Below, in pieces: positions 40,348-44,601 of a stretch of DNA of 64,000 nucleotides. The notes under the pieces are model-generated. The model searched no databases. It was given only the letters and a program-made list of their open reading frames with translations, and was not told the DNA's origin. Positions within the stretch are counted from its first letter, which is position 1; each line of letters begins with the position of its first letter. The translations under genes and the position numbers were made by a program. Source of the DNA: Gammaproteobacteria bacterium (GTDB lineage Bacteria; Pseudomonadota; Gammaproteobacteria; UBA4575); NCBI GenBank assembly GCA_963422595.1, contig OY730298.1, positions 524,109 to 588,108 of the forward strand. The letters run 5' to 3'.

Positions 40348-41355
40348 TTAAGGGGTGTAAGAATTGAGGCCTATAAAGGTGCCGCCGTTACGTTCGCACA
40401 AGGCGCGCATCAGGGTGGCAAAGCGAATGCCGGTAGTCTGTTCTGCCTGCGGGCGGCCGAATTGAATGGGAAACCCGACCGCGTGGATGCGCACGCGACG
40501 GTTGCCGCGCTGGTCGCGTTTGTTGATGCGGTCTACGTGGTGTAATACGGTGTCGATGGAGGGCCCGGTAAATTCGTCTCCGAATACGTACAGGCTGATG
40601 TCTTTGTTGGTTGCGTAAAAGGTGCGAATGGCGGCACTGATTCCCTCTACCGGGCTACTGTTACTGAACGGCCGCCAGGTGCGTAGGCGTTTCAACACGG
40701 CTTTACGCCGTGCCGGGGTGTCGGGGATCCATTTGCCGGTATATTGTTGGAACATGTATTCGCCCATGTCGTTCATAATTTGTATGCCTTTGACTTTCGG
40801 GTATACGTTTAGTACTTCGGCAAGTTTTTGTTGCACCAGATGCCAGCCGTAATTCTGCATGCTGCCGGAGGTGTCGATGATGAAGATGATGTATTCACTG
40901 TCGACCGGAATGCCGCCTACGGTAGTATCCGGCTGCTGGTGTACAGACGCCGCACGCAACCGCCGCATGGCTGCCGTGAGTTGCTGTTTGGCAGCAGCCA
41001 GTTGAGCTTCGATGATGTTTTGAACGGTGGCGTCATCACGGGCCGCGGCGTATTGCCCTTGCAGCGTCGCCAGCTCTGCTTGCAGACGCGCGATGTTTTC
41101 GACGCGCCGCGCCAGTTGCGCCTTGTTGCTGACCAGCTGGCGATTCAAAAGATTAATCTGGCCGTGCAGGTCAGACAATTCCTGCCGTAGTCTGGTGACT
41201 GTCTGTTCCAGGTCTTTGCTGTATTCTTCAAAGATGATGGGTTCGGCAGTTTTCGACAGCACCAGCAACAGAATAAGTGCGCCGAAGCCGCAACATACAC
41301 AGTCTAAAAAAGACAGGCTGAAAACTTCGATATTGCGCCGCCGCTTGAGGTTCAT
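40348..41355 (-). CDS. Membrane-anchored coiled-coil + vWA protein (paralog B)
   Basis: N-terminal RRR..FSLSFLDCVCCGFGALILLLVL TM, coiled coil, MIDAS IIDTSGSM. Confidence 0.88.
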   Translation of the reverse strand: MNLKRRRNIEVFSLSFLDCVCCGFGALILLLVLSKTAEPIIFEEYSKDLEQTVTRLRQELSDLHGQINLLNRQLVSNKAQLARRVENIARLQAELATLQGQYAAARDDATVQNIIEAQLAAAKQQLTAAMRRLRAASVHQQPDTTVGGIPVDSEYIIFIIDTSGSMQNYGWHLVQQKLAEVLNVYPKVKGIQIMNDMGEYMFQQYTGKWIPDTPARRKAVLKRLRTWRPFSNSSPVEGISAAIRTFYATNKDISLYVFGDEFTGPSIDTVLHHVDRINKRDQRGNRRVRIHAVGFPIQFGRPQAEQTTGIRFATLMRALCERNGGTFIGLNSYTP

Positions 41356-42443
41356 GGCCAGTCCCTGGCCGGACTGAAAAAGGCACCATTGGTGCGTTGC
41401 GCCAGTTTCCAGTATTCGCTGGCGGCATCCGGATCTCCTTCCATAGGAAACAGAATGATATTCACTGGAATGCCGCGCGGCAATGCCGTCAGGGCTTGTC
41501 TGAAAAGTTTCTTGCGTGCCTTAGCCGTCACCTTAGTGCCAAAAGACCGGCCCTCTCCCTGCGTGGGCAAACCGTCCGTCAACAGGTAGATGTTGTCGGG
41601 CGGCGGCGATAACGCACTGATACTTTGAAACGCGCGCCGCAGGTTGGTGCCTTGTTGCGGTACGGTGGCGTAAAAATTCGCCACCGCGGTGTTCAGGTGG
41701 CGCACGTCTCCAGCATCCAGCCAGGGCTTGCCTGCGACCTCGTAGACGGGCGCACTGGTGGTGTTGAACGTGTAGATTTGAAACTTGCTGGCAGGTGGGA
41801 TGCGCGTGGTGATCCAGTCTACCGTGTATAGTACTTGTTGCCATTTGGCGGCGCGCACTCTGGTGTCTGCCGACAGATTGCGAAACCGCAATACATTGAC
41901 GATTCTATCCGCCAACATGCTGGCGGAGCTGTCCACTAAAATCAGGATGCGCGCACCTCCCATTTTGAGGCCGGTTAAGTATTGCCGCTGTCCCGGTCCG
42001 GCAAAGTGACGCCGGTGCTGACCCGGTATTTGTGCGCGCGTGGCACTGCCTTCTAAACGCTTATAGGCCTCTTCAAGCGATTTCAAGTCGGCCTTGAGTG
42101 CTTCAACGGCTTGTAATTGCGCCGCCGTTGCCGCGCGTTGTCGCACCAGTTGAATTTTATCGGTGCGTGTATTTTCTATAATTTCTGCGGCGCGAGCCTG
42201 CGTTTGTGTCAGTTCGTCGTGTAGTGTTCGCCGGCTGTTGTTAAGTTGCGCTAAATGCTTTTGACCGGTCAGCACGGCCTTGTCAAGTTCGCGCGCCTGC
42301 GCTTGCGCCAGGTGATTGATCTGCTGCTGCCGACCATGGGTGTTGGCATTGATGATCATGAAAAACAGGATGACGGCGCCAAAGCCGCAAAACATCACGT
42401 CCAGAAAAGCCAGACTAAACGGGCTAATGCTGTCGCGGCGCAT
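41352..42443 (-). CDS. Membrane-anchored coiled-coil + vWA protein (paralog A)
   Basis: MRR...FSLAFLDVMFCGFGAVILFFMI TM, coiled coil, MIDAS LVDSSASM...GTNL...LLTDGLP; probable start 42443. Confidence 0.88.
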   Translation of the reverse strand: MRRDSISPFSLAFLDVMFCGFGAVILFFMIINANTHGRQQQINHLAQAQARELDKAVLTGQKHLAQLNNSRRTLHDELTQTQARAAEIIENTRTDKIQLVRQRAATAAQLQAVEALKADLKSLEEAYKRLEGSATRAQIPGQHRRHFAGPGQRQYLTGLKMGGARILILVDSSASMLADRIVNVLRFRNLSADTRVRAAKWQQVLYTVDWITTRIPPASKFQIYTFNTTSAPVYEVAGKPWLDAGDVRHLNTAVANFYATVPQQGTNLRRAFQSISALSPPPDNIYLLTDGLPTQGEGRSFGTKVTAKARKKLFRQALTALPRGIPVNIILFPMEGDPDAASEYWKLAQRTNGAFFSPARDWP

Positions 42444-43791
42444 ATTGATGTACTTTGATAAAGCGTACTTCGGCGGTCTGCCCGGCCACGCGCAGATGAT
42501 CCCCAAGCTGTACCCTTTGGCGCGCGCGTAATACCCTGCCGTTGCAGGTAACCGCGCCGTTGTTCAACACTTCGATTTCTACCTGTAGTCCTGCGGTAGA
42601 GATTTTGCACAGGCTGTCGTCGCCTGGCGCGCCATCAATGCGCAAACCGCCATTATCACCGCTGCCGGCCACGAAGACTTCCTGCATGAGGGGATAAGCA
42701 TGGTCACCGATTAGCGCGTGCGTGGGCACCGCGTGTAGCTGTGACAGTGAACCGGCATTGCATTGCGGGCGCAACGGTTTGACCTGAGGCGGCCACGCTA
42801 TTGCAGTGGTGTAGTGAACGGGCTGCTTGTGAGCACCGATCTGCGGCTGGTGCAGCAGTGCCTGCCTGGCAACGTCGCGCGCCTCTGCGGTCAGTACCGC
42901 GCAGCCTGGCATGGCCGATAAAAATTCATGTAGTCCAAACACTCGCGCACAGCTGGGCGAACTTATGATGACTGCCGCGTCGGCACTCTGAAATACGCCG
43001 CCGAGACGCGCGGCGATGCGCCTGAAGACCGCTTGATTGGCGTTGCGCAGCTGTCTCTTGTGCAGGCGTATGCGGTAGGTGTGAGTGTCCGATGTCAATT
43101 TACATTCGACCGCGTCGGCGGTGTTTAACGCCGCTAACCAAAGCGGCAATTTTTCAAAAAATTGTTGTTCGTGCCATGCTGCGTGCATGGGGTCAAAGCG
43201 CGTTTTGGTGATAAATATTGCGGCAATCGTGCTGGCGAGATGCTCACTTAAAGACTGCAAGCCGGGTGTTAAAACCGTACTTGGGTGTACCACTGTAACT
43301 CCAGTTGCAGTTTGCCGTATTTCGGTGATCGCAAGGTGTTGCTGCATGACGTCAATATAGACGAGTTTATGATCGGGCATGGGCGCCAGCGGCACCAGTA
43401 CCGCCTTGCTGACCAGCCCGCGAACGCTTATTGATAGTCTTTCGCAGATCCCCAATAGCAGACCCAGGTCGTGTTTGGTGAAGGTGTCGGGGGTTACTAA
43501 AATTGCGTCGCGGTCGGATAGCGCGACTTGTTGCCATACGCATTGCAGATGTCTGTAGGCAAGTTCGGCATTGCTGATTACACGTCTGGTGTCGCTGTTG
43601 GCCGATAGTTGACTCCAGAAGCCGGTGGCAATATCACGCGGGCGACTATATGCCTGCCGTTCGGCGCACTCCCCAAAGATGATGCGATGTTCTGCTTCGA
43701 CTAACGCCAAAGTTGCGCTATCGGCTAAAACTTTATCGCCATCGCTGATTTGCACGCCACTGTCATAGAGGTCGATCACTACAGTAGCCAT
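42424..43791 (-). CDS. Hypothetical protein, putative actin/Hsp70-like fold with C-terminal FHA-like domain
   Basis: N-terminal VVIDLYDSG..IIFGECA resembles MreB/Hsp70 openings; C-terminal NGAVTCNG...VQLGDHLRV is FHA-like. Confidence 0.55.
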   Translation of the reverse strand: MATVVIDLYDSGVQISDGDKVLADSATLALVEAEHRIIFGECAERQAYSRPRDIATGFWSQLSANSDTRRVISNAELAYRHLQCVWQQVALSDRDAILVTPDTFTKHDLGLLLGICERLSISVRGLVSKAVLVPLAPMPDHKLVYIDVMQQHLAITEIRQTATGVTVVHPSTVLTPGLQSLSEHLASTIAAIFITKTRFDPMHAAWHEQQFFEKLPLWLAALNTADAVECKLTSDTHTYRIRLHKRQLRNANQAVFRRIAARLGGVFQSADAAVIISSPSCARVFGLHEFLSAMPGCAVLTAEARDVARQALLHQPQIGAHKQPVHYTTAIAWPPQVKPLRPQCNAGSLSQLHAVPTHALIGDHAYPLMQEVFVAGSGDNGGLRIDGAPGDDSLCKISTAGLQVEIEVLNNGAVTCNGRVLRARQRVQLGDHLRVAGQTAEVRFIKVHQYAPRQH

Positions 43792-43803
43792 CCGGCGCGC
43801 CTG

Positions 43804-44601
43804 TTACTGCACCTGAAGATGGCGTATCAGGTTGTGGTTGCACCAGTTTTGCGTGTCTAGAATAAATCTCTCCTGCAGAAGTTGCAGCTGATACACGATA
43901 AACATTAATACGATGCTGATACATAATGCGATGAGGGTGGAATTAAAGGCCACGCCTAAACTTTCGGTGACTCCGGCAATATCGCCTTGCACGGCTTTAT
44001 GCGCTTGTCCCAAGGCGTCACCGATGCCGCGCACCGTGCCTAAGAAACCAATGGAGGGGATCGCCCAGGTGATGTAGCGGATGATGGATAGTTCGGAGTT
44101 GAGGCGTTCGGATTCCGACTCGCATACGCTATTGGCAGCCGAGGAGACGTCCTGAATATTGCGCGTCGAGCTAAAGCGGTGTAGCGCGACTTGCAGCACG
44201 CGCGGCAACAGGTAGTGCTGTTCGGCCGCCGACAATGCCTGAATTTCTCTGGACAGTTGGCGCGCGTCCTGCGGTAAAAATTTTACGCCTTCCTTAGCGG
44301 GCAACAAGTCTTGTTCCAACAGGCGGCGTTGGCGAACCAGTATGCCGGTTTTGTAGGCCATGATGAGCAGCGCCCAGAACATGAGTATAAAACAGGCCTC
44401 CTGTTCGTAATCACGGATGAGTATGTACACGGAACGCTTCGGCACGTAATTTTTGTCGATATTAATGTGCGCCGCCTGGCGTTCCAGTTGCACCTCTGCA
44501 TTGGGACGAATCACGGCCACGTACGCGGCATGCACCACAATAATGATGATGAGCAGGCTGAACACCTGGTAAACAAACTCGGAAGGCAGGCGTTTTTGCA
44601 T
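43804..44601 (-). CDS. MotA/TolQ/ExbB proton channel family protein
   Basis: IRYITWAIPSIGFLGTVRGI and LGVAFNSTLIAL TM pair. Confidence 0.93.
   Translation of the reverse strand: MQKRLPSEFVYQVFSLLIIIIVVHAAYVAVIRPNAEVQLERQAAHINIDKNYVPKRSVYILIRDYEQEACFILMFWALLIMAYKTGILVRQRRLLEQDLLPAKEGVKFLPQDARQLSREIQALSAAEQHYLLPRVLQVALHRFSSTRNIQDVSSAANSVCESESERLNSELSIIRYITWAIPSIGFLGTVRGIGDALGQAHKAVQGDIAGVTESLGVAFNSTLIALCISIVLMFIVYQLQLLQERFILDTQNWCNHNLIRHLQVQ

Follow-up and report, generated by a model that had tools for sequence, protein, structure and literature searches.

The window analysed here, a stretch of 64,000 nucleotides (contig OY730298.1, positions 524,109 to 588,108), carries a gene for a channel subunit of the MotA/ExbB/TolQ family, and the question that the locus raises is which proteins act as its inner subunits. 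The channel protein is encoded two genes upstream of a pair of paralogous genes, vwaA and vwaB (Table 1). We consider it probable that this pair supplies the inner subunits (the 'plug' or 'axle') of an ion-driven motor of MotA/ExbB/TolQ type, with the 265-aa protein as its channel. The idea of a vWA axle is itself already published, as a computational prediction: pairs of 'transpore-helix vWA' (TPH-vWA) genes next to lone tolQ-like genes were predicted (Mol Biol Evol 2025;42:msaf138, PMC12204202), and AlphaFold3 models of a related cluster give the same axle reading (section 8 and Fig. 4 legend of that paper). As described there, the TPH-vWA family, which was seeded from Idiomarina, shares with vwaA and vwaB one N-terminal helix that carries a conserved Asp, no SHLS/His motif and a C-terminal vWA domain. 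Also alike are the two differing paralogues side by side, the adjacent tolQ-like gene with conserved pore threonines, the lack of a tolR or exbD gene, and the occurrence in Proteobacteria and the PVC group. The comparison turned up no difference in this core, and judged by the features described the vwa locus appears to be one more example of the predicted motor design. The passages on these pairs do not mention the six further conserved genes, the constant stalk length or the small predicted secreted protein. Added here are the nine-gene operon with its small predicted secreted protein, the near-constant stalk lengths and a cytoplasmic protein with Hsp70-like and FHA domains.

Table 1. Features of the vwa locus and of a second MotA-like pair in the same genome (positions are those of the window unless indicated).
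Feature	Position	Strand	Description and basis
vwaA	40348..41355	-	335 aa; ORF list, model and invariant residues
vwaA transmembrane ('transpore') helix, residues 12-34	41254..41322	-	Asp18 codon 41302-41304
vwaA MIDAS motif DTSGS, D161-S165	40861..40875	-	translation and alignment
vwaB	41352..42443	-	363 aa; vwaA paralogue, architecture as vwaA
vwaB transmembrane helix, residues 9-31	42351..42419	-	Asp15 codon 42399-42401
vwaB MIDAS motif DSSAS, D171-S175	41919..41933	-	alignment and translation
p455	42424..43791	-	cytoplasmic; Hsp70 nucleotide-binding-domain-like fold and C-terminal FHA; model and profile
Channel subunit, MotA/ExbB/TolQ family	43804..44601	-	265 aa; Pfam PF01618 (MotA_ExbB); codons of Thr189 44035-44037 and Thr222 43936-43938
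Small ORF	44604..44843	-	79 aa; signal-like hydrophobic N-terminus; conserved C-terminal peptide ending FPVDI
799-aa protein	44935..47334	-	FHA-like N-terminus, one transmembrane segment, PEGA repeats, C-terminal FGE-sulfatase-like domain
514-aa membrane-anchored TPR protein	47331..48875	-	Pfam TPR families
388-aa predicted lipoprotein	48942..50108	-	N-terminal ...QLGGC; lipobox read by eye
259-aa acidic predicted lipoprotein	50118..50897	-	N-terminal ...LNAC; lipobox read by eye
Second MotA-like pair, outside the window	G000:C1:613862-615887; L119:863-1843 and 1851-2888		326-aa MotA-like protein and 345-aa partner

The N-terminus of vwaA, checked in translation, consists of MNLKRRRNIEV followed by FSLSFLDCVCCGFGALILLLVLS, which includes Asp18. 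This basic N-terminus and transmembrane helix are followed by a stalk helix of about 100 residues and a vWA head. In the AlphaFold2 model (pLDDT 87.2) an unbroken helix (residues 9-137) is joined by a linker to an alpha/beta domain (residues 155-330), which resembles vWA/integrin I domains and BatB (3ibs was among the best Foldseek fold matches). The Pfam VWA_2 scores of vwaA and vwaB, 18.2 and 22.4 bits, are both under the cut-off of 27. The vwaA family includes 1589 clusters (50% identity) at E <= 0.001, and Asp18, Cys22, Asp161, Ser163 and Ser165 are invariant in alignment A1, which holds 41 sequences sharing 32-61% identity with vwaA. At the level of sequence the pattern is a real family feature, chance being excluded by the family size and the invariant residues.

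The vwaB N-terminus is MRRDSISP followed by FSLAFLDVMFCGFGAVILFFMII, which includes Asp15. The ATG at 42443 was taken as the start because it is supported by the orthologue lengths (58 orthologues are within 4% of 363 residues) and by Met1, which is invariant in alignment A3, as are T266 and D290; a TTG start at 42506 would give a longer frame that overlaps the gene upstream. The two paralogues share 23% identity over 273 residues (E 2e-11). The sequences confirmed what the original prediction had described: both proteins open with basic residues and FSL(S/A)FLD(C/V)xxCGFGAxIL and end in a vWA domain that carries DxSxS, and between these lies a long helix, described in the prediction as a coiled coil.

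Lack of conservation of the membrane Asp had been named beforehand as a result that would refute the prediction, and the residue proved essentially invariant in both paralogues. Of 109 diverse representatives 108 carry it, the lone exception having a Ser (P0133); the representatives were those among the 150 best matches with the N-terminal core pattern, and the 41 without it were mostly N-terminal fragments, as judged by eye. All 80 vwaA orthologues have the Asp (one was read by eye, the other 79 by pattern). With 7 truncated fragments set aside, so do all 73 vwaB orthologues whose N-terminus is complete; D15 is invariant in A3 just as Asp18 is in A1. The helix continues with CGFGA, in which the Cys at Asp+4 (Cys22 of vwaA, Cys19 of vwaB) is invariant and GFGA nearly so, a region unlike the TolR helices compared. 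The Asp is 6 residues inside the hydrophobic segment and follows the basic cluster by about 11, the same spacing as between Lys10-Arg11 and Asp22 in the TolR of this genome. When the vwa helix was compared with ExbD/TolR by hhalign, Asp aligned on Asp, but with a low probability (2%, P 0.022). A basic and then hydrophobic N-terminus, closed in vwaA by the small Ser34, is also what a cleaved signal peptide would look like, and the coiled-coil vWA proteins would then be soluble in the periplasm. This reading, also named beforehand as one that would refute the prediction, is highly improbable: the 23-residue segment, with its invariant charged residue, is the best-conserved stretch of both proteins apart from the MIDAS motif, and the vwaA model continues it unbroken into the stalk helix.

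The channel protein matches Pfam MotA_ExbB (E 8.5e-15, 55.1 bits, cut-off 22.9) and is far under the NCBIfam equivalog cut-offs for TolQ and ExbB. In alignment its Thr189 and Thr222 fall on Thr145 and Thr178 of the TolQ of the same genome, and both are invariant in 50 sequences. A MotA/ExbB-like gene stands with the vwaA/vwaB pair in all 66 loci; the vwa loci are spread over Gammaproteobacteria, Desulfobacterota, Acidobacteriota, Myxococcota, Kiritimatiellia and Planctomycetota. When 6011 ORFs from 80 loci were searched with an ExbD/TolR profile built from 30 sequences, a single match was found at E <= 10, located 9 kb away on the opposite strand. The genome itself (99.87% complete) has one PF02472 match, which lies beside tolQ about 1 Mb from the vwa locus, and no MotB_plug match. 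Its other channels each adjoin a partner with an Asp-bearing helix: TolQ adjoins TolR, and a 326-aa MotA-like protein adjoins a 345-aa protein. The latter resembles vwaA and vwaB in its basic N-terminus, Asp-bearing helix and long coiled coil before the head, but the head is OmpA-like (peptidoglycan-binding type) and there is a single partner gene. The proposal that the two vWA proteins are the 'missing ExbD/MotB subunits' can hold in function only; neither matched the ExbD or MotB_plug families in Pfam and profile searches.

That mismatch, together with the low hhalign probability and a head whose closest folds include BatB, could also mean that the vwa helices are plain anchors for periplasmic binding proteins of the BatA/BatB type and that the channel works without them. 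The BatA/BatB aerotolerance proteins likewise join an N-terminal membrane anchor to a periplasmic vWA head. However, we know of no coiled-coil stalk, conserved membrane Asp or channel-family neighbour in BatA/BatB, and Pfam searches found no MoxR-type gene in the vwa operon. A plain anchor would need neither the invariant Asp and Cys nor the nearly invariant GFGA; moreover, the channel gene is linked in all 66 loci, its pore threonines are retained, and neither the loci nor the genome yielded an alternative partner. We regard the anchor reading as unlikely. Taken as a whole, the original prediction is partly supported by these sequence comparisons; its core, that vwaA and vwaB are axle subunits, is well supported by comparison through the nearly invariant Asp, the linkage to the channel gene, the conserved pore threonines and the near absence of ExbD/TolR from the loci.

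In the motor that we propose, the channel subunits would form a ring whose pore takes up the N-terminal helices of vwaA and vwaB. Judging from relatives of solved structure, the ring would be a pentamer round two helices, most likely one of vwaA and one of vwaB. Asp18 and Asp15 would load and release protons beside the ring of Thr189 and Thr222, and the ion flow would rotate or shift the helix pair relative to the channel ring. The helical stalk, of fixed length and extending about 100 residues past the membrane, could transmit this movement through the periplasm to the two predicted metal-binding vWA heads, whose MIDAS sites may bind an acidic ligand, presumably another operon product or an envelope component. 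The ExbB-ExbD and TolQ-TolR systems have in common with this arrangement a MotA_ExbB-family channel with two conserved pore threonines and a partner with a basic N-terminus, a single helix and an Asp near the cytoplasmic face. They differ in that the vwa proteins have the long helix and vWA head in place of an ExbD-fold periplasmic domain, there are two paralogues versus one gene, and no TonB/TolA-like third protein was seen.

ExbD, TolR and MotB are homodimers. Each vwa paralogue retains its own Asp, Cys and MIDAS motif and therefore could work alone, so that two kinds of motor, ring plus A2 and ring plus B2, might exist. This arrangement is rather doubtful. There is a single channel gene for the two paralogues, vwaB lies directly upstream of vwaA in all 75 loci with enough flank, and the 4 nt overlap between the vwaB stop and the vwaA start favours equal dosage. 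In 71 pairs the membrane Asp and the MIDAS Asp are separated by 141-146 residues in vwaA and by 151-157 in vwaB, and the 12-14 residue offset found in 60 of the 71 pairs better suits the halves of one asymmetric stalk. 'Heterologous pairs' are also the rule in PMC12204202, in so far as that text describes them. The AglR-AglQ-AglS gliding motor of Myxococcus xanthus, which works with the vWA adhesin CglB, reportedly pairs a single TolQ-like channel with two distinct partners of the TolR type, and has a vWA protein and TPR proteins in one envelope-spanning system, as the vwa operon does; in the Agl case, reportedly, an outer-membrane protein of its own carries the vWA domain, unfused to the Asp helix, and the accessory genes differ.

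The operon begins with the gene for the predicted 259-aa lipoprotein, and the gene order is the same across phyla. The channel protein weakly matches the PADLOC ZorA models (E 1e-4 and 5e-3), as might be expected if the cluster were an anti-phage defence of the Zorya kind, with a MotA/MotB-like sensor motor. These matches are confined to the common MotA/ExbB domain, however, and the only other defence-model matches were weak coiled-coil ones of vwaA/vwaB to LmuB and PbeC. Among 18 other genomes from this taxonomic family, 17 retain the operon, genomes of 1.2-1.8 Mb among them, and the constant gene order is unlike that of patchy defence islands. A defence role is very unlikely.

The remaining genes are kept with the proposed motor in most loci. 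The p455 protein (60 of 71 loci) has no Pfam or NCBIfam match. Its model (pLDDT 91.6) places an Hsp70 nucleotide-binding-domain-like region at about residues 1-345, which Foldseek matched to Hsp70/DnaK (DnaK NBD 4rtf, TM 0.74). The C-terminal FHA domain, at about 352-448, is indicated by a profile of 43 orthologues that matches PDB FHA domains (E 1.5e-5). The 799-aa protein (57 of 58 loci) matches Pfam FGE-sulfatase (3.2e-43) and PEGA (9.4e-43), and its N-terminal profile weakly matches FHA domains (E 9e-4). The GldL-GldM/PorL-PorM motor of the type IX secretion system has a 5:2 architecture, and its two inner subunits likewise extend as a long periplasmic stalk. PorK/GldK is also the best NCBIfam match of the 799-aa protein, with its FGE-sulfatase-like domain, but at 102.7 bits against a cut-off of 350, and the resemblance is one of layout alone. 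The 514-aa TPR gene (51 of 53 loci) overlaps the next gene by 4 nt. The predicted 388-aa lipoprotein, found in 50 of 52 loci, belongs to no known family in Pfam or NCBIfam; the predicted 259-aa lipoprotein, found in 45 of 49, has 46 Asp and Glu versus 29 Lys and Arg residues. The 79-aa ORF, whose product is a small predicted secreted protein, stops 2 nt before the ATG of the channel gene, and 56 of 65 loci have, immediately upstream of the channel gene, a small ORF that ends in this C-terminal motif.

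The vwaA and vwaB proteins both begin with basic residues, after which vwaA reads FSLSFLDCVCCGFGALILLLVLS and vwaB reads FSLAFLDVMFCGFGAVILFFMII, in exact agreement with the pattern that the original prediction had described. The two are distant paralogs, as was also proposed (23% identity, E 2e-11). An AlphaFold2 model of vwaA built with 41 sequences (pLDDT 87.2) consists of an unbroken helix from residue 9 to residue 137, a short linker and an alpha/beta domain, and a Foldseek search with the latter matched vWA and integrin I domains, ITIH1 and BatB. The Pfam vWA scores of both proteins fall under the cut-off; the DxSxS motif of the metal site (MIDAS) is invariant in the alignments. 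At 1.5 Å per residue, the modeled stalk of vwaA past the membrane, about 100 helical residues, would be roughly 15 nm long. Conservation of the membrane-helix Asp had been named as a check on the motor idea, and it held: the residue is present in all vwaA orthologues from 80 related loci (79 recognized by pattern and one by eye) and in the 73 vwaB orthologues having an N-terminus, the remaining seven from these loci being cut at contig ends or having broken frames. When 1.84 billion cluster representatives were searched with HMMER, 1589 reached E <= 0.001; of the best 150 among these, 109 fit the N-terminal-core pattern used for counting the Asp. The key position was Asp in 108 of them and Ser in one, and Cys was found at Asp+4 in all 109. 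By eye, the 41 representatives that did not fit the pattern were mostly N-terminal fragments or fusions; two of them carry the Asp motif nonetheless. Residues D18, C22, D161, S163 and S165 are invariant when vwaA is aligned with 40 full-length representatives taken from across the ranking, and in each of the paralogues the invariant Cys and the Asp are one helical turn apart. Residues 12-34 of vwaA and 9-31 of vwaB include no His, so the helices are devoid of the SHLS/His motif of TolA/TonB. The vwaA match of three relatives (genomes G012, G033 and G048) holds one in-frame TAA, which may reflect a broken gene or an alignment running past the gene.

The 265-aa channel protein encoded in the same operon scored 55.1 bits against its Pfam family (cut-off 22.9). 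Its scores are far under the equivalog cut-offs for TolQ (28.1, cut-off 221) and ExbB (22.0, cut-off 135), and it therefore represents a separate branch of the MotA/ExbB/TolQ family. BLAST against the TolQ of the same genome placed Thr189 on Thr145 and Thr222 on Thr178, and both T189 and T222 are invariant among 50 orthologues of the channel protein. The genome, a single contig of 1.78 Mb that is 99.87% complete, has three MotA_ExbB matches: one is tolQ, another is the channel gene of the operon, and the third, a 326-aa gene, lies outside the window. Its one ExbD/TolR match lies beside tolQ, about 1 Mb from the window; a six-frame ExbD/TolR search of the genome (E <= 1) returned TolR only, and a search of the whole genome for MotB_plug (PF13677), at the same threshold, gave no match. 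The 326-aa gene is followed by one whose 345-aa product starts with basic residues and an Asp-bearing helix, continues as a long coiled coil and has an OmpA-like end; this product was detected neither by the ExbD profile nor by the MotB_plug profile. The pair, in which the channel gene is orphan-looking, is an existing case of an Asp helix and a coiled coil joined to another kind of head. Each channel in the genome has an adjoining Asp-helix partner; for the channel of the operon, vwaA and vwaB are the sole candidates. When 6011 ORFs of the 80 related loci were searched with a 30-sequence ExbD/TolR profile (E <= 10), a single match was obtained, 9 kb off and on the opposite strand.

The original prediction proposed that vwaA and vwaB may be the missing ExbD/MotB subunits. 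The conserved Asp, the linked channel gene and the lack of any other partner give this idea comparative support, but as a family assignment it did not stand. Neither protein matched Pfam PF02472 (ExbD/TolR) at E <= 0.1 or the 30-sequence ExbD/TolR profile at E <= 10, and Pfam found no OmpA domain in either of them. An hhalign comparison of 137 vwaA/vwaB N-termini with 30 ExbD/TolR sequences paired the Asp residues in a 13-column alignment (probability 2%, P 0.022), with 20-odd hydrophobic residues to compare. By profile, then, vwaA and vwaB are outside the ExbD/TolR and MotB families; they most likely work like them. Insertion of the helices in the pore, the 5:2 stoichiometry, the heterodimer and the use of protons are proposed on analogy and on comparative evidence. 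A complex prediction carried out at 4:1:1 instead of 5:2 (four copies of channel residues 60-249 with residues 1-45 of vwaA and of vwaB) scored 0.02, where the mark was 0.32, and bears neither way on binding. Taken by comparison, the motor interpretation itself is well supported.

A predicted system with the same features has been described in 'Origin and Evolution of Bacterial Periplasmic Force Transducers' (Mol Biol Evol 2025, PMC12204202). According to that article, TPH-vWA proteins co-occur tightly with tolQ homologues in the absence of tolR/exbD, are devoid of the SHLS motif and form mostly heterologous pairs, and AlphaFold3 puts their helices within the pentamer beside a threonine ring. 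As in that description, vwaA and vwaB each have one helix, at the N-terminus, that carries a conserved Asp and no SHLS/His motif, and a C-terminal vWA fold; their locus has a linked tolQ-like gene and no tolR, exbD or motB gene; the two differing paralogues adjoin; and the channel has a conserved threonine ring (T189/T222). By these shared features, the locus is another member of the predicted kind. The seed cluster of the article is from Idiomarina, and the best 80 loci kept include no record of that name. Since the motor principle, including the idea in the original prediction, was already published (PMC12204202), the novelty is low.

Membrane Asp and MIDAS Asp are separated by 141-146 residues in vwaA and by 151-157 residues in vwaB, as determined in 71 pairs from related loci of several phyla, and the offset between the two proteins is 12-14 residues in 60 of these pairs. 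This near-constant distance suggests that the stalk serves to keep a set spacing. With so little variation in length (r 0.31, related genomes), a covariation test for the heterodimer is without power. Several characteristics of the sequences would favor an A:B heterodimer: there is one channel gene for two paralogues that are always paired, the vwaB and vwaA genes overlap by 4 nt, and both the Asp-to-MIDAS distances and their offset are nearly fixed.

The region 40348-44601 is part of a co-directional nine-gene operon, in which the spacing of several adjoining genes is a 4-nt overlap or a gap of 2-20 nt. The features are collected in the table, together with the number of related loci at which each gene was found.

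Features of the nine-gene operon and other elements discussed in the text. Counts come from searching the ORFs of each related locus with the proteins of the window, and the denominators are the loci with enough upstream DNA; one Myxococcales locus, where the latter half of the cluster lies downstream in inverted orientation, was scored as a miss.
Feature	Position	Strand	Related loci	Remarks
Acidic predicted lipoprotein, 259-aa	50118-50897	minus	45/49	first at operon 5' end
Second predicted lipoprotein, 388-aa	48942-50108	minus	50/52	
Membrane-anchored TPR protein	47331-48875	minus	51/53	
799-aa protein (FGE/PEGA)	44935-47334	minus	57/58	PEGA repeats and FGE-sulfatase-like domain (Pfam/NCBIfam)
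79-aa secreted-looking protein	44604-44843	minus		
265-aa MotA/ExbB-family protein (channel)	43804-44601	minus	66/66	Pfam PF01618
455-aa protein (p455)	42424-43791	minus	60/71	without family match
vwaB, vWA paralogue	41352-42443	minus	75/75	adjoins vwaA
vwaA, vWA paralogue	40348-41355	minus		
180-nt unit, three copies	39678-40217			head-to-tail, directly downstream of vwaA stop
326-aa/345-aa pair	L119:863-1843 and L119:1851-2888 (G000:C1:613862-615887)			own genome, outside the window
Hanks-type kinase	G000:C1:1441808-1442452 (L114)			604-aa frame, own genome

This is a widespread system: a pattern scan with one genome per species confirmed at least 577 relatives among the 600 matches listed, and these relatives span at least six phyla. 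The best 80 loci, which were kept, belong to Gammaproteobacteria, Desulfobacterota, Acidobacteriota, Myxococcota and Kiritimatiellia, with one Planctomycetota record. A vwaA homologue is carried by 17 of 18 other sampled genomes of the organism's taxonomic family and by one of 12 genomes from 12 other families of the class. A scan of the operon for promoters and terminators produced nothing exceeding shuffles. The G+C content of the window between about 40 and 60 kb, operon included, is 0.52-0.56, and that of most of the first 34 kb is 0.42-0.50; the high-GC stretch also spans ordinary housekeeping genes, so the operon is not singled out as an island. In the tandem repeat beyond vwaA, copy 2 is 97% identical to copy 1 and copy 3 is 96% identical over the first 144 nt. 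The repeat has no further copies elsewhere in the genome and no match in Rfam, which had no match anywhere in 37800-40400.

The remaining proteins of the operon were compared with known families and folds. The p455 protein has no Pfam or NCBIfam family and a PDB search with the lone sequence found nothing. Its model (pLDDT 91.6) resembles Hsp70 nucleotide-binding domains, with TM 0.74 and rmsd 3.9 Å against that of M. tuberculosis DnaK (4rtf), and a profile of 43 orthologues matched FHA domains at positions 352-448 (Ki-67, 1.5e-5; Rv0020c, 5.8e-5). At the 11 loci where p455 is absent, the channel gene directly abuts vwaB. Weaker FHA matches, the best at 9e-4, were found at the N-terminus of the 799-aa protein, and the top NCBIfam match of its FGE-like domain was PorK/GldK, far under the cut-off. 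PEGA and FGE-type domains are also mentioned in PMC7159879, for conflict systems that are unrelated. The only clear Hanks-type kinase match in the genome is far from the operon and is a possible source of phosphothreonine for the two FHA-like modules. Neither lipoprotein matched anything in Pfam or NCBIfam, and for the 388-aa one the ESM Atlas returned unnamed clusters only. The 79-aa ORF, which separates the FGE gene from the channel gene, looks unannotated; it has a signal-like N-terminus and ends in ...EEFVPDEEVSADKPVAFPVDI. Its frame is kept in the DNA of four close relatives, with third-position changes. A small ORF with the same terminal motif is located just upstream of the channel gene at 56 of 65 loci, all 56 having Pro at -4, Asp at -2 and Ile at -1, and the conserved C-terminal peptide reads F.P[ST]E.[IV].AD..V.FP.DI, then stop.

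MotA/ExbB/TolQ-type motors drive flagella, nutrient import, envelope upkeep, gliding and secretion and, to our knowledge, the output of every solved motor of this kind is set by what the two inner subunits carry. At the vwaA/vwaB locus, judging from the sequences and the vwaA model, that output would be two vWA heads carried by a long stalk. The coupling of vWA heads to such motors is known to us from computational prediction alone. The locus adds no new principle; it gives a clean and complete nine-gene example with testable details, i.e., the invariant Cys near the Asp, the fixed stalk length and the small secreted protein with its conserved C-terminal peptide. A reading of the locus as a defence system was rejected, as PADLOC gave only weak ZorA matches, which fall in the shared channel domain, and noise from coiled coils.

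A more tentative idea, which we consider possible and on balance rather unlikely, is that the nine genes encode one undescribed envelope-spanning machine. In such a machine, a proton-driven ring would turn or pull an asymmetric vwaA:vwaB stalk of fixed length, and the two MIDAS heads of the stalk would grip acidic partners from the same operon. These partners could be the acidic outer-membrane lipoprotein and the small secreted protein, the latter through its invariant ...FPxDI C-terminus; this terminus may, speculatively, be a ligand of the heads, or it might bind to the periplasmic TPR protein instead. The motor would be switched through phosphothreonine signalling by two FHA modules in the cytoplasm, of which the Hsp70-like protein carries one. 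If this were true, the machine would represent a third route, beside TonB/TolA and GldM/PorM, by which membrane energy reaches the outer membrane, and it would serve an envelope function retained even by genomes of 1.2-1.8 Mb. Our literature searches turned up nothing on the wider nine-gene operon, and of what they returned only PMC12204202 bears on the system. Cultured carriers are represented among the related loci by Microbulbifer strains (loci L066 and L080).
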